A stretch of 63,633 nt of DNA, the filler included, from Squatina squatina (Eukaryota): assembly GCA_031763465.1 (NCBI GenBank). It is 3 parts of 3 records of this genome, joined end to end, with 100 filler letters (N's around TTAATTAATTAA, not from the genome) between each part and the next. Parts side by side here need not be neighbours in the genome. Positions count along the whole stretch, not along the records: positions 1 to 31,702 come from JARFOE010000189.1; 2 more parts are not named here. One strand, written 5' to 3'. Of this stretch, positions 5,780 to 50,366 are shown in pieces. Within the stretch, counting starts at the first letter, position 1. Each line of letters opens with the position of its first letter. The translations under genes and the position numbers were made by a program. The notes below the pieces were generated by a model. That model saw only the letters and a list, made by a program, of their open reading frames with translations, made no database searches and was not told the origin of the DNA.

Positions 5780-7624
5780 ACAATAAAGAGTTGAACAAAA
5801 TCTACAAATTAGCTGTTAAAGCAAAGATTAAAAGATTTTTTTTTTGCCTATTGAACACTGAAGCAAAGCTAATTGCAGGCAAATGGTAATATTTGACTTG
5901 GACGTTTCAGTGCAGTTCGCAGGAATGTTATGGTGAGATAAAGGGTGATCTAATAATTACACTGGATTAGCATCTTGCAGCAAAAAAATTAAAGTCCAAA
6001 CAGAACTTAATGCAAATGACATGTTTAGCAATGCAAGAAAATGCATCAAAAACTATTTCAACTTATTCTGAGGACAATTCAAACATGGCCAAACTAATTA
6101 TAAACATACATAATTAGTACACTGTTTTTATTATTGGTGCACTTGGCAGAAGGTAACATGCAATGCTGGTGAATTGGGTAAGAGCTAAAGTGATGATAAC
6201 TCTCAATATTGAGAGAATGTAAGTTGTACACACTATGTCTGTGACCCCTCTAGTTGGACCCCTATCTGCTTNNNNNNNNNNNNNNNNNNNNNNNNNNNNN
6301 NNNNNNNNNNNNNNNNNNNNNNNNNNNNNNNNNNNNNNNNNNNNNNNNNNNNNNNNNNNNNNNNNNNNNNNCAATAAATGTTCACTGTACATCTGGCACT
6401 CAGGAATAACACACACTAATATCTGTGAGTATGTGCATACTTGGCTGTGCTTTTAGCCTACTAATCATAATTCCACTTTATAAACAAATCCTCACAGAAA
6501 GCTTTAATGCCACAATGAGCTAATACAAGTGAAAGCTCCTAACCAGAGAGAGAATTTTCTTGTTAAATGCCCAGTTTCACCATGGCTGCAACTGCTGCCA
6601 CTCAACAGAACAAAATGTGCTCGCAACAGACACCACTGTAAAATGTTAAAACAAAATAACACTTCCAAATTATCCGCTCACACTAAATTTTACAAAATTA
6701 CATACACTTCTTTGCATTGTTGCATTTCAATCTTTGTGAAGAGCTCTTTTTAAAGCAGTTGTTTTATTCAGCATGCAAAGTCTCGAGGCATGGATAAATT
6801 TTCTAACATATCCTTTTTAAATAGGGGAAAGAGGAGAACAGGATTGATGACAACTTTTCTAGGTATTTTCCTACAAAGTAAGTGATTCAAAATACTCACT
6901 TTGTATTAAAAAAAGACGGCAATGGTCAATGCATCCTGTAGATCTGTATTCAGAGTAATACAATTGTAATTTTAGATGCATGCATTATGGAAGAAGTTTA
7001 CCACATTGCAACCATCTAACAGGCCTCCACAAAAACCAACCCCATTGATTTATAATGTGCACACAGTTCCAGAAAACTCCAAAAAGAATCCAATGGCATT
7101 TTTCAAATTGATTTCTTCAAAAATGTTAGTACAGTACACAAATTCATATCTTCTCACACTATGGCCCTGAATTTCCTCGTAGTCAGATACGCTGTAGTTG
7201 CGCCATTATTGTGCCAGAAAGTTACACCATTCACCAGCAGACGGAATTGCACATAAATTTCCTAAGTTAATTAATTTTCAAGCAACTCTGGTGTAACATG
7301 AGTGTTAAAAACTACGTTGCTAGCCCTGCCCCCGTAAACTTTTATGCAATGGTGACTCTTTAAAAGCACTCTAAAAATTCCCGGCAGCATCAGAACATTG
7401 TTTGACAGCAAGGTAAGCAGCAGACAAATACTGTTGCTGGCAATTTCCACCATCACTTGAGAACAACTCTCATCCACAGTATCAGTCCAAATTGGCACCA
7501 TGCCCACTTAGGTGCCAACTGTGCCNNNNNNNNNNNNNNNNNNNNNNNNNNNNNNNNNNNNNNNNNNNNNNNNNNNNNNNNNNNNNNNNNNNNNNNNNNN
7601 NNNNNNNNNNNNNNNNNNNNNNNN

Positions 7625-8891
7625 NGCCTTCGTAGACGGGGATCCTGGTGTATCCGCTCTCCATGATTTCGGACATGGTGTTGAAATCCAAGATCGCGTC
7701 GCAGGTGATCATAAAGCAATCCCGGAGCGGGGTCATCACGTCCTCCACCGTCTTGGTCCGGAGCTCCAGGGCGCCCTGGATGATGTTGAGCTCTTCCTTC
7801 ACCAGGTCGTTGTACGGGTCGGTGACCCGCAGCATCTCCAGCAGCTTCTCGCGGTTGTAGACGGTGCCAATCTCCTGGCCCAGGATGACGTCCAGCAGCC
7901 GGCTGACCGGGTAAGAGGCCGGGAAGGTGAGCAGCATGAAGAACTTGGTCAGCACGATGGTGTTGGCGCCCACCGCCAGCCCGTGGCGGGAGCAGATGGC
8001 CTGCGGCACGATCTCGCCGAAGATGACGATGCCGACGGTGGAGATGGCCACGGCCACCACCCCGGAGCCGGCGATGTCGTCCAGCAGGATGGTCAGGGTG
8101 GTGTTGACCAGCACGTTGCCCAGCAGCAGCGAGCACAGCAGGTAGTTGCCCTGCCGGCGCACCGGCTCGATGCGCTTGGCGTAGTTCTTCTCCTTCTCGG
8201 TGCCGCAGTTTTGCACGATCCGCAGCTCCATGGGGTCGAGCGCCATCAGCCCCAGGTTCAAGCCGCCGAACATGCCCGACAGGCACAGCAGCACCGAGAT
8301 GAAGATCACCTGCAGCCAGAAGGGCAGCAGGAACTTGCGCTCCTCCACCACCACCACCATGGTGTCCTCGGTGTCGTGGTACAGCCAGTCGGCCTGGCCG
8401 CCGGCTCCCGGCTCCGGCGCCCGGCCGGCCGTGCACAGGTAGTAGGCTTTGGTCTTCTCCGTCTTGCGCAGCGGCTTGACCTCCATCTCGATCACGCCGC
8501 TGCTGCGCCGGCTCACCGCCACGCCGGGCAGCACCACGATGTCCGAGGTGCGCACGCCGCACGGGTCGAAGCTGCCGCCGCCGTCGACCGCCGCCGCCGC
8601 GCGCCGGTGCTCGGTGAAGCCGATGCGGCTCCAGGTGGCGTTGTCGATGGCGCGGCCGTACAGCCGCAGCCGGACCCGCGTCCGCTCGCTCACCCGCACC
8701 ACGCCTCCCCCCAGGCCCGTCACGTCATCTGTGTCCTCCAGCCTCAGGCCGATGATGACCGTGTCCGTGTCGTCGCCGCCGTCCTCCTCGGCGGCCGCCG
8801 CCGCCGCCGCGCACAGGGACAGAAGGCTCCAGAAGCAGCAGCAGGCGGACAGGGTGAGAAAGCCGATACGGCCGCTACTGCAGGCCGCCAT
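7625..8891 (-). CDS. CNNM2: Metal transporter CNNM2, coding exon 1 (signal peptide, extracellular domain, DUF21 TM domain, start of CBS pair); 3' end lost in gap
   Basis: [84 protein letters not shown] match recalled CNNM2; in-frame stop upstream of the ATG; synteny with WBP1L/SFXN2/ARL3/TRIM8. Confidence 0.96.
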
Positions 8892-9560
8892 CTTTGTAAT
8901 GGAAATGGAGGCAGTATCCCCTCAGGGAAAAAAATGTATAATTATGGAGGGGGGGTTTTCAAAAAAAAAAAGGGTCACATCCGACAATAAGTGCCTTTCA
9001 TTCCTCTCCCTTCGTTTTCTCTCTCTTTTTTCACAGACATAATAGACTTTTTTTGACAATGTATTTTCCCAATCGGTCACATAACTTCCACCCGCTTTCA
9101 ATCAGCTCGCGCTCTGACTCAAATCCAGCTGAAGCTCCGAGCGCGAGCCCCGTCCAACCGTTCCGCCCCCCCCTTGACGGACAAGGCCGACCAACCAACC
9201 GGAAGAAAGGGGGCGGAGAAGGACTTGAACCAATCGCAACGGTCGAGGTGGGCGGTTCCTGGACAGCGGTCAATCAGCAGCCGCACACGTGGGGTCCCCG
9301 CCCCACAAAGCGGCCGGCGGAGGGGTGGGGGTCTCCCTCCCAACTCTCGCTTCTTGACAGGCCCCTTGCATCCCGATTGGCTTCCGTCAACGGGCGCGTG
9401 AAGCGGCTGCACGGAGGCCGCCAATCGGAGAGCGGGACGCCGGGCCTGCAGCCAATCGGCGCATATTTTCCTTTTCTGGAGCGCAGGCTCGTGCACGTTT
9501 TGTTGCGAGGACCTTGTGTTTGGAGCTTGTGTCAAATAGCGTCAATGTGCACGTGTGTGC
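8885..9560 (-). promoter_or_regulatory. CpG-island promoter and 5' UTR of CNNM2
   Basis: CpG-rich 7625-9560; CCAAT boxes at 9230, 9376 (reverse), 9421, 9452; GGGCGG at 9211 and 9250; CACGTG at 9286 and 9550; YY1-like AAGATGGCGG over the start codon. Confidence 0.75.
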
Positions 9561-15632: not shown

Positions 15633-16304
15633 TTAGGTCTGGGAGTCATGTTGCTGGTGAGCTTGCAGCAATTCATTCTCATTGATGGTGTCCAGCAACA
15701 GGCACACCGGCTCCTCCATGACCTCTGGACTGTGTTGCTCCTTGAGGTCCTGTTGCTCGCGTGCTTCGGCGAGGGCGTCCTCTCTCATGTCGGCACGAGG
15801 GCAGGAGTCGCACATGTTGCAGCTATCGCAGAACTCCATTGCATTCCCCAGCCCATCAATCAGGCTGTCCAGCTCCTTCGGATCGTCGTGGTCTCTGTTG
15901 CAGACACAAACCTCGATGCCAGAATCTCCGGTGAACCTTCGGTGCCTCCCGGGGGTCTTGTCGACGTCCTTGATTTCCAAGCAGGAGTGGTGATGCCAGC
16001 TCTCGATCTTGGAGGAAGAGCTCGGGTAATAGTCAACAAGTTGCTCCTTCTCGGGGCAGCTCAGCTCCTCTTCCAGGTCCAAGCAACATGCTCGCACGGG
16101 TTCTAGTTCGGTGCCGGCAACCAGATCCTCCGCCTGATCGGCTGCGGGCGTTTTGTTCAAGTTACGTTCGGAGTACGCGAGAGGAGAGTCCAGGTCCAGC
16201 GCACTCCCGTGACGGGCCACTGCCTCGCAGACCGTCGGGATGGAATTACTTGGGGTGGCCGGAGTCCTGGCTGGCTCGGGGTTGGAGGAACCCAGCATGT
16301 AGTT
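15633..16304 (-). CDS. WBP1L: WW domain binding protein 1-like, last coding exon (5' part lost in gap)
   Basis: PGRHRRFTGDSGIEVCVCNR..DD.KE...LID.L...EFCDSC and P.CLLL.TINE match the recalled WBP1L C-terminus; syntenic position. Confidence 0.92.
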   Translation of the reverse strand, partial: NYMLGSSNPEPARTPATPSNSIPTVCEAVARHGSALDLDSPLAYSERNLNKTPAADQAEDLVAGTELEPVRACCLDLEEELSCPEKEQLVDYYPSSSSKIESWHHHSCLEIKDVDKTPGRHRRFTGDSGIEVCVCNRDHDDPKELDSLIDGLGNAMEFCDSCNMCDSCPRADMREDALAEAREQQDLKEQHSPEVMEEPVCLLLDTINENELLQAHQQHDSQT

Positions 16305-16913
16305 NNNNNNNNNNNNNNNNNNNNNNNNNNNNNNNNNNNNNNNNNNNNNNNNNNNNNNNNNNNNNNNNNNNNNNNNNNNNNNNNNNNNNNNNNNNNNNNN
16401 NNNNTGTCTAAATCCCTTTGAAGCCTCTTTGCATCCTCCTCACAACTTACATTCCAACCTAGACTTTGTATCATCAGCAAGCTTGGAGATATTACATTTG
16501 CTCTCCTCATCCAAATCATATTTTGAACTTGTGTACGTGTTGGAGGAGGAGTGGATTTGAGTTGCATGAGATGCCCCCCACAGTAAACTAACACGTTGAC
16601 ATTCACTGTCCACACTCAGAACTGAACAATGGGCGCCTGGGTGAGGAGCCTGGTGTCTGTGGGTCTGCACGACAGCAGCAGTCAAAGTCAGCAAGAGAGA
16701 AGGAAAGGGAAGCAAACATTGGCAAACGCTTCTGATTTGCTAAACACAACAACAAAACTGCAAAAACCAAGCAGAACTGCCAGCTCCAACAGCTGCACAT
16801 TTATGAATAAAATCAGCCAGTTTCTGGCCCTATTGGAAACTCGCTGTCTGTGGATGAACAAAGGAAGAGGGAGCGAGACAGAGATGGTGACTAATTAGGT
16901 CCAAATCACTTAC

Positions 16914-27355: not shown

Positions 27356-28026
27356 TCAAAATGTATGATAGACAGAATTTAGAAGATTAGCTTGCGGTGT
27401 AGTGTTCAGTGAAGGATTGGCCATATATCCTGCAGTTATCTTGCCTGCAGTGTTGTTGTGAGATGCCGATCCCATTCCGTACGATATTAGGGACTGAGGT
27501 ACCGAGGGAGCAGGTGGAAGAGCATGTGCGTATTCCTGCGATGTCACAGACCATGGGAAAGTGCCCGATCTGCTGTATGGCTGGTGTCCATTGTGGTTCG
27601 AAACAGAAGGCACGCCAGAACAGTAACAGTTATCCACGGAGCAGACGAGGATTTTGCGCCCACCGTAGCCGACTGACTGGGAAAGTACAGACTGCTGGGA
27701 AGGCGTGCCGTTGGGATAGTGAGTTGTATTGAAGACTGGACCCGTGTGGACGGGCTGCGGACCGCTGGTCAGTCCCACAATGTGCTGGGAAGAGCTGCAG
27801 GGCACAAGGGACNNNNNNNNNNNNNNNNCTACGACAGGACCGCCCTGGCCCATAAACTGGCTGGCAACATTCCCAGCTGTTACTTCCAGGAAGCCATTGT
27901 CCACAGCAGATGTTGTGGGCATAGGGAAAGCAGTGGAGTGCTTACGTTTTTCTCCAGTAGCATTGGAAATGTTGCAGGTGTAAGCAGGAACGCTCTGCAG
28001 AAACGGTACGGGAGTGCTTATTGTTC
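27356..28026 (-). CDS. TRIM8: E3 ubiquitin ligase TRIM8, last coding exon
   Basis: ccaacag|GA ACA ATA: (G)TISTPVPFLQSVPAY...EKRKHSTAFP...YGGRKILVCSVDNCYCS..NHNGHQPY.RSG.FPW.V.SQEY.H.LPP.PSVPQSL matches recalled TRIM8; tail-to-tail with ARL3; 16-N gap inside the exon. Confidence 0.95.
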
Positions 28027-28380
28027 CTGTTGGATGTACAGCAAAGAAACAGGTTACACCAGGAATCTACAATTACTGCAAACACATGCACAAAAGTAGT
28101 TTTGCCAGTTATCCACTGGACTGGATTTGCATGGTTGAAAACAAAACATTTGATTTGTTTAAGCTTCTGTTCCTCCTCAAAAACTTTTCAACACAAGACA
28201 CAGGCTTTTGTCCAAGTTACACAAGCAGTTTTTCTTGCTCACATGTAAAAGTCCAAGGAACCTATTAAAACACTCGGCATTAACAACTATGGAAACATTG
28301 TAGCATGAGTGGTTGTACTTTCCTGGCACATTAGGACCACATTCTACCAAATCCTAGATTTACTAAAGACTACTGATCCC

Positions 28381-34975: not shown

Positions 34976-36187
34976 GCAACAATAATTCCACTGCCTTACT
35001 CTGCCTCCTTAATTCCTTTGCTTCAAATCTTTATCCATTTTCCCCTTTCAATTCTGTATCCCCACCATAAATAGACCCTGTTACACAGTGACATTTTCTG
35101 AGAGCTGCAAATAACATTCAGTGCGCCAACAGCTAATGTGCTAAGAGCATTATAAGATGCAGTAGTTTCAGTTAAAAGTGCAATGGAACAGCAGCAGGAC
35201 TGGAAATAAAACTACAGATGCCACAAGAATACAGAAAGCACTTCAGGATTAAGTAACAAATAGTGTCAGCATAAAAAGACAACACAAATTACATCGGCAA
35301 TAAAGAGGAACTTAAGTCCCGTTTAAAGCACGCAAACTGATGGCACTTTGCCTGCAAAACAGGAATTTAAGCAGCATTCTTCCTGGCTGGAGTTGTATTT
35401 AAATTAACGAGCTTCACATGATGTCAGCATGAAAATGTTTCACACGACACTTTTCTCTAATATTCAGTCAGTGCATCTACCTTCTATTTTTCACAATGAC
35501 AGAAGTTTTACTAGTTTTTAGTGCTCACCTATTTTATATTCAGCCTCACTTGCATGTGTATTTTAATTATAATTAGCATAAATTATTCCCGCATTCCCCA
35601 AATGTTCTGTTCTGTTATCTGATTTCACCTGAAGGCATTGACTCACAGTGGGAGGACTGTTCAATAAACAGTGGGAAGCCTCCTCTTCCCCCCCCTCCCT
35701 CCCCTCCCTCTATACTTTATGTGGGACTCTAGACAGCAAGTGCTAGTAGACTGTTCAACCTTGTAAAGATTCAAAGCTACACCCAATGTCCACAGGTACA
35801 ACAATAAATTTATAATCCTGCTCTTTGTATCGGCAGACAACTGTGAGCGCTTTACAAGGAGTGGACATTGAGCAGAAGACAGAACAGAGATAGACAGAAN
35901 NNNNNNNNNNNNNNNNNNNNNNNNNNNNNNNNNNNNNNNNNNNNNNNNNNNNNNNNNNNNNNNNNNNNNNNNNNNNNNNNNNNNNNNNNNNNNNNNNNNA
36001 ACATTTGCAAGAATTCATGGGACTGAGTCAAGTACCATCCTTGCGATGGTGCTCACACCTGTTAATATTTCTCGGACACAGAAAAGCTAGAGCCCCTGAT
36101 TTATAGCAAATGCAGCTCAGCATCCATATAGTTTTTAAACATCTTGTTTCACATTGTGGATGACGAAAAATGAAACCAGTTTCCTAC

Positions 36188-36304
36188 CTGCTTGTAAAAG
36201 TCAGTGCGAGTGAAGCAGCGAGGTGAGGCATAAGGCGAAGGTACTGGGTCTGGTGCTCAATGATTTTCACCTCTTCTTTGTCTTTAGGTCCAAACTGCCT
36301 CCGG
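36188..36304 (-). CDS. ACOXL: ACOXL internal exon (117 bp)
   Basis: Not in the ORF track. gtattag|(S)[38 protein letters not shown](R)|gtagga; acyl-CoA oxidase RRQFG motif, near-identical to recalled human ACOXL. Confidence 0.95.
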
Positions 36305-39300
36305 CTAATACCAAAACAATGGAAACAGGAGTAAAAGATTAGCCAAATATCTGAGCAAAGCTTGCATCGTAGCCTGGTGACGGTGTATTACACTGAAAAA
36401 CAAAAGGCTGCATATAATGACACCGTATGTCCCAACCAGAATGGAGATCTGGAGCTCCCAAATTTTGTTTGATAATGCTCCTGTGAAACATTTAATTACA
36501 CTAAAGGCGCTATATAAATGCAAGTAGTTGCTGCTTTACCATCCGGAAATATGAAGCATTTTGAAATCAGATTATTTTTTCAAATGATCAAATGATCAAA
36601 ACCTATTTGGCATGGCAGTTCATGTTGTTTCCCCTCCTGTACCCAGGATGTGACGTCAATGACCTGACTGAGGAGTATTGAGAAAGACACAAAACTTTAG
36701 ACTGTGACTAAATGGTTACCCAACGATTGAGGATACTTTCCCATCGTGGCTATGAAGTGGATGTTCCATAAACGTAGAACCATTTTGATAACTGGGTATT
36801 TGCTGGCAATATTTAGAGCTTTCAAGGCCTCATTGCTCTGGTTTCATACTCTACGTCCAGTACATATATTCATACATTCATGTCCATGCATAGAATTTCA
36901 ACAGCGAATGCTCCAAGAGACTTCCTATTCACTCCCAAGTCACAGAATTCCTGATCTGTATATAACAGTTCGTAGAATTATACTGCACAGAGTGGGAGGG
37001 CCACACGTACATGAGCACCTCAAAGGCAACTCGGCTGTACCAATAGGACTCCAGGAATGGGAAGGGCTGAAGGAATGTTAGAATTTTTTCCTTCTGCTCC
37101 TAAGGGAGAAAACAGCATGTTTCCGAAGATAATTGACCTCCTCTGGGATGAATCACCTTTCCTCAGTGCAGTTCTGCGGCCTTTAATATTTCTGAGTTGG
37201 AATCAGTACTGTTGGGGTGCAGGGAGAGAATGATGGGCAGTATTCCTGGGCTAGCCTGGGAAATTCAGGATATTCTGCCCTTATAAGGTCTTGGGGGAAT
37301 GACAGCTAAGAACAAGTGTGAATTGCCCTGAGAACCTTGTGAATGTCCCAAACCTTTACTAGAGAAAGGTGATTGGTCCAGGAGAAGATCCATTACCTTC
37401 CCCAAGAGGCTGGCTTGCTCATTTGGGAGCCAAAGAGGTGAGAACAAAGATATCCCTTTCCAGGGATGGGGCAATGTTCCCTGGAGGTCCCGCGCAGCTG
37501 GCTCACCGACTTTTAAAGGGAANNNNNNNNNNNNNNNNNNNNNNNNNNNNNNNNNNNNNNNNNNNNNNNNNNNNNNNNNNNNNNNNNNNNNNNNNNNNNN
37601 NNNNNNNNNNNNNNNNNNNNNNATGATCATATTGAATGGCGGTGCAGGCTCGAAGGGCCGAATGGCCTACTTCTGCACCTATTTTCTATGTTTCTATAAA
37701 AAGCATGTCACCTCTAATTGTGCAGTACTCCCTCATTTTTGCACTGCTGTGAGCCTAGATTATGTGCTCAAATACGGGAGATAATTCCCAAATACACCAT
37801 CATTAGACATGAATGTTCCTGAGAGCACAAAGTACTTTCACCTCTAACTGACTTTAATGGTATCTTTTAACTTACCTCCTTCCCTTTGACAGTACTCTGT
37901 ATTGCTTATAAGGACTTGTCATGTAAAATTAACTATGAATGTCTTTTTTTTCCCTTTATTGAAGATCTAAGGTTTTTTTTTGCAAGCAACGCAATTCTGA
38001 ATGGGATGCAAAGCATGTTTGTTTAAAATAGCAAAGGCACCCCACCTTAGAACCATCAGAACAAAAACATCGAGATAACAGATATCATATCTGATACAAT
38101 GCTCATACAGGCAGGATTCCCTCGCTTTGCCTACTCCTACACAGTTTTAGGTTGTTACAAATGGTATTTAGTATCAAAAGAATATCAAATGTGAAAGTTG
38201 AATGTGGCTTTGTATCATCGTCAGAGTAAGATGTAAGTACCGAACGCACCATTTCATGAATTTACAACATTGACATGCAATTACAATTATGACCTACATG
38301 GAATGAAAATGTAGTTTTCAAAAGCTCTAAATTTTAAATTACTATGACAGATTTATTAAAACAGCACACACAACGTGCTATGCCTGTTCGACAACAGCAA
38401 GAAACTGATTTGCGCTTTCCTGAAGAACTCAGGTTCACAGATTTGCAATTGTCATCATATCTTGAGTGTAAAGGGTTAATGTCTATGGCTCTTCGGACAA
38501 ATGCGTCACATGGCCCGATATTGAGCTACACTTGGTGTAGACTGGATCACACACACAAAAGAATAGCTACTTGGGCCNNNNNNNNNNNNNNNNNNNNNNN
38601 NNNNNNNNNNNNNNNNNNNNNNNNNNNNNNNNNNNNNNNNNNNNNNNNNNNNNNNNNNNNNNNNNNNNNNNNNNNNNTCCCCAATGAGTCTGCCAAGCCT
38701 ACTCCCTTGGCTGTGATTTCACTAAATAGTAGAAGGGACAGCAGGAATCTCACTCATGCAGTCATGTGTGTCATTATATAGATGGCTAAGCATTGGGTTA
38801 TTTTGAAAGTGTCAGCTAGGCTATTTAAATTTTAGTGGGGACAAGGGAGCGGGTGGGGGGAGGCAGTGTTGCAGGCTACAGCCATGCAAGATCTCTTCCT
38901 TGCCAGGCATCCATAATGATGCACTTTCCACCAGCAGCCACTGGATACGTCCAGCATGCCCCCACCCCGAGTGATCCATCGCCCTCTGAGCCTGGGAACA
39001 CCGAGGCCAGTCATAGTGCCTCATTACAGTCCTGGTTGAGATCACAAACAAACTCAAGGATCGACCTGGGAATTTGCTGTGTGTATTGTACCTTGCAGTG
39101 CACTTACACAGTGAGCCATTACCACTGTTTTAAATAGAATGGAAAACCTTTTAAAATCCTGCATGTAAGTTAACTGAACATAAAATATTTCCAGCCTTTC
39201 AACATGATCATAAATCTTCAGAGCAAATCTGCGAGACTTATAGAGTTTGTGCCCAATGAGAAATTTAGTTTTAATGATTTTTTTTGCTGCAAGGCTATTA

Positions 39301-43671: not shown

Positions 43672-44001
43672 NNNNNNNNNNNNNNNNNNNNNNNNNNNNN
43701 NNNNNNNNNNNNNNNNNNNNNNNNNNNNNNNNNNNNNNNNNNNNNNNNNNNNNNNNNNNNNNNNNNNNNNNGTGTCACATTGAAGCACTTCAAGGTAGTT
43801 CACAGAATGAATTCTAATGAAGTGCAATCACTCTTTTATGTGGGAATACCATCACATTACAATTTAACTTTTGTTTATCTAGCATGATGCCTTCTGTTTA
43901 GAGCTTTGTGTGACTGTGGATAGTTTTCATTCTGCATGTGGTGTGATTTCTATAAGCATCTCTAAATGTTTCCTAATTTCTCTTTTAAAATATCTTTTTA
44001 G

Positions 44002-44195
44002 AATTTCAAATCCAGCTGAGCCTGTGCTTCAAAATGATAGCCACGGTAAAATTCAGGCAGCGTCCGGTGAACTTCAGCAAGTTATCATGTACCATAAAGA
44101 TGTTCTCTTTTCTGGAGATAAAGAGATGTGTTTTGAAGAAATTCGAGCTAAGGAACACATTGCGCGAAGCCAACAGAAGGAAAAGGAGGAATGGA
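44002..44195 (+). CDS. BUB1: BUB1 exon containing the GLEBS (Bub3-binding) motif
   Basis: ttttag|..IMYHKDVLFSGDKEMCFEEIRAKEH...KEEW|gtatgt vs recalled human VMYCKEKLIRGESEFSFEELRAQKY..HEQW. Confidence 0.88.
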
Positions 44196-44842
44196 GTATG
44201 TCTTTTGTTTTTTCTGTCATCATAATTTGTAGCCAATCTACTGGAAATGACTGGAGCTGCTTGTCTTCTGTGGAGTTGCGCTCCATTTTTTGCTCACCTC
44301 CCTGGTGGCATGGGTGCTGGCCTGTAGTCTGTTGTTCATTGACACAGCATGTTGACACATCAACATAAAAATGAAAACTTAAAACTGAAAAAATGTAATG
44401 TAAAATTTCTGGTTTCCTTGTGCGTTCTGGCCAACATCATCATTGAGCGATTTAAAAACCTGCTCACGTCCTCTCCTGTAAATATTACTTTTTCGGTGAA
44501 AGGTGTTGATACAGTATGGAAGAAATGATGAAGATTTATTATTGCTTTGAGACAGAATATGGAATAGCATCCTGTGTTACAGCACAATTGTTCAGACGTT
44601 TCTCCTGATATAGGAAAAAAAAGGGTCGTCAGCAGATAAGTAATCCTCTCCCCTCAATCTTTAACTTACATTCATTTTTTATTCCCCACACAAGTGTCAA
44701 AATAATTTACAGGAAATAATGTATTGCCACACATAGCAGGGCGGTTATTTTGGTGCAAATGCTACTTCTGGCCACTTGATTAAGTTTTTCTTTCAATTGT
44801 GAGGAGAAATTAACACTAATCAACTAATTAAATACAATAGAG

Positions 44843-49044: not shown

Positions 49045-49793
<749 letters not shown>

Positions 49794-50137
49794 NNNNNNN
49801 NNNNNNNNNNNNNNNNNNNNNNNNNNNNNNNNNNNNNNNNNNNNNNNNNNNNNNNNNNNNNNNNNNNNNNNNNNNNNNNNNNNNNNNNNNNNNCAATTCC
49901 CAATTAGTCTTCCTCGTTATGTCCTCATTGCAAATTGGGAGCATGGCTATAAAACCATTACTGACCAGCCACTGCCAAGACACTGGTAAATAGGTGGAGC
50001 AGAATTGGTCCAATTGTAACTGGTCTTCAAATATCCTAGCTCTTAAATTTATCAATATTTTCCATTTTTTGGATACAAGATAGCAGCGCTATTCCAATTC
50101 AAGAGGGAAAAGAACACAATTATTTGTAAATTAAAAA

Positions 50138-50146
50138 AAAGGATAT
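50138..50146 (-). other. U12-type (AT-AC) 5' splice site
   Basis: CAG TGG CAT G|ATATCCTTT, exactly where channel homology ends. Confidence 0.88.
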
Positions 50147-50366
50147 CATGCCACTGATTGACCACTGTCAATTCGATCAGCAAAATGAAGGCAGAGACGA
50201 GATTATTGAAGTTATTCTTGCAGTATCTAAGAGCAGCAAACTGAGAACCCTTCAGTGCTGGATTCCCACAATATTTGGCTGCAGGGTCACTAGAATTAGC
50301 ACCATAAAATCGGATTCTGCCTTTGAATGCTTCCATTCCAACTATTGCAAATATATAGTACACGAC
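50147..50366 (-). CDS. TPCN3: Two-pore channel 3, exon encoding domain II S5 to the pore filter
   Basis: ctttag|VVYYIFAIVGMEAFKGRI...YCGNPALKGSQFA.L.YCKNNFNNLVSAFILLIELTVVNQWH; the VVNQW filter and adjacency to BUB1 point to TPC3. Confidence 0.9.

Follow-up and report, generated by a model that had tools for sequence, protein, structure and literature searches.

A net change of seven bases has probably exchanged the last 35 residues of TRIM8 for a conserved tail of 43 residues, likely in the common ancestor of the cartilaginous fishes, and the shifted tail is common to all cartilaginous fishes examined, not special to Squatina squatina. The last exon of the gene was analysed in a window of 63,633 nucleotides (the whole stretch of S. 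squatina DNA, filler included, from assembly GCA_031763465.1), which holds only this exon of TRIM8, those for the RING, the B-box and the coiled coil lying outside it; the RING and coiled-coil families are carried by the full-length, open TRIM8 proteins of close relatives. By tblastn the exon matched shark TRIM8 records at 93-96% and Callorhinchus at 86%, and it contains the TRIM8 orthologue landmarks KRKHS and RKILVCSVDNCYCS. A PRY-SPRY domain is absent from it, and a Pfam search of the exon returned no family. An exon-like ORF at 32118-31975 was also considered as a TRIM8 exon and was rejected, as tblastn gave no match. The features of the exon, in window coordinates, are:

27356-28026, minus strand: coding part of the TRIM8 last exon, with the acceptor AG at 28028-28027 and 16 N at 27813-27828
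27483-27487, minus strand: frame junction, ATATC, five bases where bony vertebrates have four codons (net -7)
27359-27487, minus strand: cartilaginous-fish tail, 43 residues in frame 0, with 37 of 43 columns invariant across the window and 15 named species
27387-27482, minus strand: -1-frame relic of the tail of bony vertebrates, 31 codons and TAA
27387-27389, minus strand: TAA in register with the bony-vertebrate stop, aligning to the TAA of teleost locus L001
27359-27388, minus strand: ten-codon extension NLLNSVYHTF, 9 of 10 columns invariant
27356-27358, minus strand: present stop TGA, the identical end in the named cartilaginous-fish records

The other reading frame matches the tails of bony vertebrates

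Frame 0 runs from PSVPQSL into ISYGMG and on to VYHTF, followed by TGA at 27358-27356, and the -1 frame over 27482-27387 gives 31 codons and TAA, so that both translations stand as the first-pass annotation gave them. The match reported there between the -1 frame and the human tail was reproduced (15/31, ungapped, with the stop in register) against the mammalian tail, which was taken from 23 of the 85 stored bony-vertebrate records, is present in macaque (P0101) and served as a stand-in for human, the human record itself not having been fetched. Amphibian and reptile tails matched the relic at 17-19/31, likewise free of gaps and with their stop aligned to its own; for the Xenopus tail the score was 17 at the relic and never exceeded 8 elsewhere in the window, over 127,075 six-frame positions. 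The frame-0 shark tail shared 4 identities at best with bony-vertebrate tails. At the DNA level, the relic was identical at 55 of 96 bases, ungapped and with TAA on TAA, to L001, a teleost trim8b exon that was the sole locus obtained from 107 stretches in a metagenome scan and whose DNA has two stops that close the shark frame. The other frame of the shark exon thus encodes the motif of the sister lineage, as in a frameshift-derived C-terminus of the euAP3 type. In two mammal-like records (P0049 and P0148) the end is read, probably because of sequence errors, in the frame that corresponds to the shark one, and there it agrees with the shark tail at 9/30.

The proposed indel of about 7 nt was likewise borne out: because five bases (ATATC, 27487-27483) separate the Leu and Val codons here and four codons do so in all 80 bony-vertebrate tails caught by the pattern, the net change is -7. 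The earlier claim that many differences in the -1 frame are reachable through wobble positions of frame 0 held in part. The six listed changes that were tested were all silent in frame 0, but W>G is not a wobble change, as it alters frame 0 (ATG, Met, against ATT, Ile). At the position listed as L>I, most non-mammalian tails already have Ile, like the shark relic.

The shifted tail is shared by cartilaginous fishes

With the last 151 residues of the exon as query, stingray (98%) and elephant shark (92%) matched over the entire query, whereas bony-vertebrate matches ended at about 72% of it. The shifted tail was present in the records of 15/15 named sharks, rays, skates and Callorhinchus examined (the main cluster listed 15 of its 26 members); their tails differ from the window at 0-4 of 43 residues and the remaining exon at 3-21 of 174. 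The last-exon landmark was present in 179 database proteins, of which 25 end in the shark tail, 147 in the bony-vertebrate tail and 7 in neither, these seven being cut, mis-framed or missed by the pattern, and no named record among the 179 carries the tail of the opposite class.

Contigs of eight sequencing runs, from related species 95-99% alike and not from the specimen's own reads, were aligned to the window in place of raw reads. Six of these runs cover the exon, none with an indel in the coding stretch, and five (X1, X7, X11, X14 and X19, from five studies and four organisms) bridge the junction, none with an indel that would restore the bony-vertebrate frame. X20, which covers the junction with just 30 bases on one side, was left out of the bridging count, and X17 and X18 yielded no contig aligned to the window. 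Indels in the runs are numerous just beyond the present stop, from 27347 on into the 3' UTR, and the tail has none. At 28028, the acceptor, the contigs of X1 and X11 part from the window and continue into KEKHIRKLL, the end of the preceding exon (read by hand); the shifted tail therefore sits on spliced molecules. The RNA-like status of these and the other run contigs is the tool's guess, none being recorded as RNA.

Orthology and gene neighbourhood

In a tree of 29 rows, the 25 TRIM8 rows grouped at 100/100 and the 18 bony-vertebrate rows at 84/100, with the long outgroup branches flagged, and three divergent matches clustered with teleost trim8a. By this tree and the homologue searches the chondrichthyan gene is a single-copy sister to bony-vertebrate TRIM8, as expected of an orthologue; a second chondrichthyan copy was not found among the matches listed (76 matches; the best 150 of 8,103 representatives; 120 listed of 179; 81 of 81). 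Between RING and first B-box, TRIM8 of cartilaginous fishes carries an insertion that is rich in Ala and Ser, varies in length and is missing from bony vertebrates (about residues 80-115 in P0002, P0079, P0088, P0089, P0091 and P0099). Paramormyrops has extra, strongly diverged TRIM8-like copies (P0130, P0141 and P0144) whose C-terminal regions are unrelated.

The surroundings of the exon include the following:

7485-8921 and 15636-16439 region, minus strand, downstream of TRIM8: an exon of a CNNM metal transporter (Pfam) and, in the same region and on the same strand, an ORF without Pfam match that we take to be WBP1L-like
36187-36387, 8 kb upstream of TRIM8: ACOX-like exons
43883-44365 and 49045-49740, upstream of TRIM8: BUB1-like exons
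50055-50366, upstream of TRIM8: ion-channel exons

The order of these downstream genes may be shared with human. Window positions 873-52018 form a gappy scaffold with 39 runs of N, mostly of 100 bases; given this, the lone TRIM8 exon and the ACOX, BUB1 and channel exons upstream, the sequence upstream of TRIM8 may have been joined to it in error during scaffolding.

Such a scaffold, holding just the last exon of TRIM8, and the moderate support of the bony-vertebrate clade (84/100) are what could be cited for an error of assembly or base calling, or for a decayed paralogue, the chance of which we regard as negligible. An error is already refuted by the recurrence of this tail in the records of 15 independent species and across the six covering runs, in agreement with the earlier view of an old, fixed frameshift; no named chondrichthyan was found to encode a tail of the bony-vertebrate type in frame. 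A decayed paralogue is also at odds with the full-length open proteins, which include RING and coiled-coil domains, and with the finding of no second chondrichthyan TRIM8 among the matches listed.

Selection acts on the shark frame

The coding exon showed 18 substitutions, of which 15 are at third positions and silent in frame 0, the other three being upstream of the junction. The two that fall within the tail leave the frame-0 protein unchanged and alter the -1 protein (Arg to Trp and Gly to Ser), and over the open -1 stretch 5/5 substitutions change the -1 protein and 0/5 that of frame 0. This is coding-type evolution in the new frame, as in euAP3, seen at few sites and thus with modest power, and it supports selection on frame 0, as had been proposed. 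The -1 frame has decayed. In the window it matches 9 of the 14 positions that are near-invariant in 106 bony-vertebrate tails, having lost Trp, Phe, Tyr, Lys and Val, and at seven positions no bony-vertebrate residue is possible in the -1 frame in any of 16 rows, as deduced from the proteins. In skates two further positions are unable to give bony-vertebrate residues, and Asp is forced at a conserved Gly; in eight galeomorph sharks the -1 frame is forced to Asn or Asp at the last Ser, which Callorhinchus loses too.

Since changes in the tail are silent only in frame 0 and five of the 14 near-invariant residues are gone, the dual-coding tail suggested by the first-pass annotation, in which ribosomal frameshifting or another splice would still yield small amounts of the old tail, is highly unlikely. 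The -1 frame stays open between 27629 and 27387 with its stop retained, and all five sites at which one silent change would close it are open (about 0.08, given exon codon use), but an open frame is also expected from slow drift off the old state. A heptamer of the form XXXYYYZ, TTTCCCA (27560), lies in frame, and the overlap region, one of four stretches tried, folds at z -2.3. Canonical slippery sites have AAA or UUU at the YYY of the heptamer, whereas TTTCCCA has CCC, is forced by Phe-Pro codons that the teleost has too, and has no stable fold just downstream (z +0.24). No joint within the exon was seen in the six covering runs, whose contigs drop rare forms. Thus neither a second frame conserved as protein, nor a canonical heptamer with downstream structure, nor a frame-changing splice was found. 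An isoform of Scyliorhinus canicula (P0084) leaves the tail after HNNTA through a GC-type donor into the 3' UTR. In window coordinates its joint runs from 27446-27445 to 26139-26091 (minus strand), and at the acceptor the window has a pyrimidine tract and AG, with a 12/17 match; the joint was seen in no aligned contig, but the alignment ended before the acceptor.

Conservation of the new tail

Four residues of the new tail are aromatic and none is Arg or acidic, against five aromatic, two to three Arg and three acidic residues in bony-vertebrate tails; an ESM Atlas search gave no usable match. That it should be functionally neutral, and conserved by slow evolution or an RNA-level element, is most improbable. 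Just two DNA changes were seen in the tail, the nearby 3' UTR is conserved too (P0095; 26141-26091) and the z -2.3 fold could reflect an RNA-level element; against this, 15 of the 18 exon changes and both tail changes are silent, the indels pile up from 27347 downward with none in the tail, and protein changes within the tail are conservative. The skate-like record P0095 reads the TGA as Trp and continues with TVCIF, which corresponds to the first 3' UTR bases of the window. This readthrough is probably an artefact of the code used by the gene caller, though it shows a conserved UTR, and the two tail substitutions together with these five conserved codon-lengths of 3' UTR mean that conservation may partly be at the DNA level.

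At the end of the tail (27370-27359, minus strand), the shark sequence closes with YHTF, most bony vertebrates with YVTS and many percomorph trim8a proteins with YGTK. Tyr fourth and Thr second from the end thus occur in both classes, encoded by different DNA, a pattern noticed post hoc; in some bony-vertebrate records Ala, Asn or His replaces the Thr. A single-copy gene that swapped its tail without a spare and rebuilt the lost terminal Tyr/Thr pattern from captured 3' UTR is a quite unlikely account of this. If true, it would imply an unrecognised C-terminal binding or degradation motif in TRIM8 of all jawed vertebrates.

Direction of change

No jawless-fish TRIM8 was found among the matches (76 matches; the best 150 of 8,103 representatives, with 20 checked by name; 120 listed of 179; 81 of 81), and because no outgroup TRIM8 was found the direction of change was judged from composition. 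The wobble argument is symmetric, being predicted by both directions, and so cannot supply it. The ten-codon extension has a G+C content of 7/30 and a third-position G+C of 1/10, against 109/207 upstream (Fisher p 0.009), and G+C falls at the old TAA from 0.49-0.55 to 0.23, close to the 3' UTR level of 0.27 (45/165). None of 565 upstream 30-base windows reached the A+T content of the extension, no fall in G+C was seen over the final ten codons of two control last exons, and Gly, Ala, Arg and Pro make up 0/10 residues of the extension against 48/174 upstream. A two-segment fit placed the best G+C change point at 27390 in 5/5 ranges, with a posterior of 0.50-0.74 for a position within 8 bases of the old stop and of 0.008-0.075 for one near the present stop, the fit being of one sequence with a 90% range that spans the present stop in 4/5 ranges. 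As the extension resembles former 3' UTR, its composition argues that the shark frame is probably the derived one and that its last ten codons are likely captured 3' UTR. Callorhinchus shares the shift, so the event is older than the split between chimaeras and sharks, which took place over 400 million years ago.

The reverse direction, with the shark tail ancestral and the bony-vertebrate stem gaining seven bases and ending at the first stop of its new frame, is unlikely. The residual likeness between the frames is symmetric (as in the two mis-framed mammalian records that match the shark tail), there is no outgroup TRIM8 among the matches and a rooted tree is unable to split the stem branch; however, this direction predicts no composition step at the -1-frame TAA, where the drop in G+C was observed, and it sits poorly with an extension devoid of Gly, Ala, Arg and Pro.

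Indel model and proposed course of events

By back-translation, a single 7-base deletion needs two to three further substitutions and an in-frame deletion of 6 bases plus a single base needs one to two; this one-substitution gap does not decide for either model. Against the ray-finned linker QGLS the shark Ile-Ser aligns with Leu-Ser, and in-frame deletions in the linker occur in sturgeon-like, shad and mudminnow records. With the shark frame as the derived one, deletions at this indel-tolerant linker, perhaps of 6 bases in frame and one more base, would have shifted the frame. Frameshifts in a last exon escape nonsense-mediated decay, and the message would have done so here owing to its position. 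The old TAA, now split across Ala-Asn codons, would have been read past, and ten codons of 3' UTR taken in. The swap was likely tolerated because it spared the RING, B-box and coiled coil as well as some 180 residues of the disordered region and because one polar, Tyr-containing end was exchanged for another. A minimum of seven additional changes, affecting both frames, would have fallen on one or other stem branch, and the new tail would then have come under purifying selection. Its most likely role is that of the terminal part of the disordered region that forms condensates.

Relation to human TRIM8 and to known frameshifts

The C-terminal region of TRIM8 in human cells is described as disordered and as the driver of nuclear condensates, of turnover and of TAK1 recruitment, and its place can be taken in part by a FUS segment (bioRxiv 2025.01.02.630836), which would be a precedent for the tolerance of a foreign end. 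The first-pass annotation had linked the shark state to the last-exon truncations that cause a human neuro-renal syndrome. The likeness holds in that both lie in the same exon and disordered region and lose the native end (PMC11482035; bioRxiv 2025.01.02.630836). In contrast, the reported patient variants fall at residues 367-495 of 551 and remove at least 56 residues (PMC11482035), whereas the frame junction corresponds to residues 517-521, about 22 residues past the most distal of them, and the shark shift, near residue 517, removes 35 residues, adds 43 and is fixed. The shark state is therefore no copy of a disease allele as far as these reported variants go.

The mechanism is not new, and the shark proteins are already in databases: the models XP_059803028.1, XP_007909622.2 and UniRef100_V9KHN7 have the same tail as their annotated C-terminus, under RefSeq and UniRef names that are silent on a frame change relative to bony vertebrates. 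The closest parallel is euAP3 of APETALA3, where a C-terminal motif was likewise replaced through a frameshift, with the old motif readable in the other frame and the new one conserved as coding (Kramer et al. 2006, PMC1513400). Fixation across a clade, expected of a change of this type, was seen for the shark tail in 15/15 named chondrichthyan species examined. A multi-base model for euAP3 was later simplified to a single-base deletion, and the same is possible for shark TRIM8 (PMC1513400). Unlike euAP3, which arose after a gene duplication with TM6 keeping the old motif, chondrichthyan TRIM8 has no duplicate that was found in our searches; the altered stretch is roughly four times as long, the change extends over an entire vertebrate class and likely captures 3' UTR, and its direction is drawn without an outgroup (PMC1513400). 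Compensatory pairs of frameshifting indels have also been fixed in vertebrates, but they restore the frame, which the shark TRIM8 shift does not (Biba et al. 2022, PMC8935012); the words TRIM8 and shark have no occurrence in the main text of that paper. The word 'shark' was likewise absent from the TRIM8 papers and preprint checked, and no paper noting a TRIM8 frameshift in cartilaginous fishes was found in a search of openly available main texts.

What sets the case apart is that no duplicate was detected and that both tails are strongly conserved: the same 96 bases yield two unrelated protein ends, each near-fixed through the history of its class. The shift provides a rare indel marker separating cartilaginous from bony vertebrates, and a natural test of how far exact sequence matters in a condensate-forming disordered region. 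It suggests that the last 35 residues of TRIM8 are replaceable, which bears on the reading of very distal human variants.
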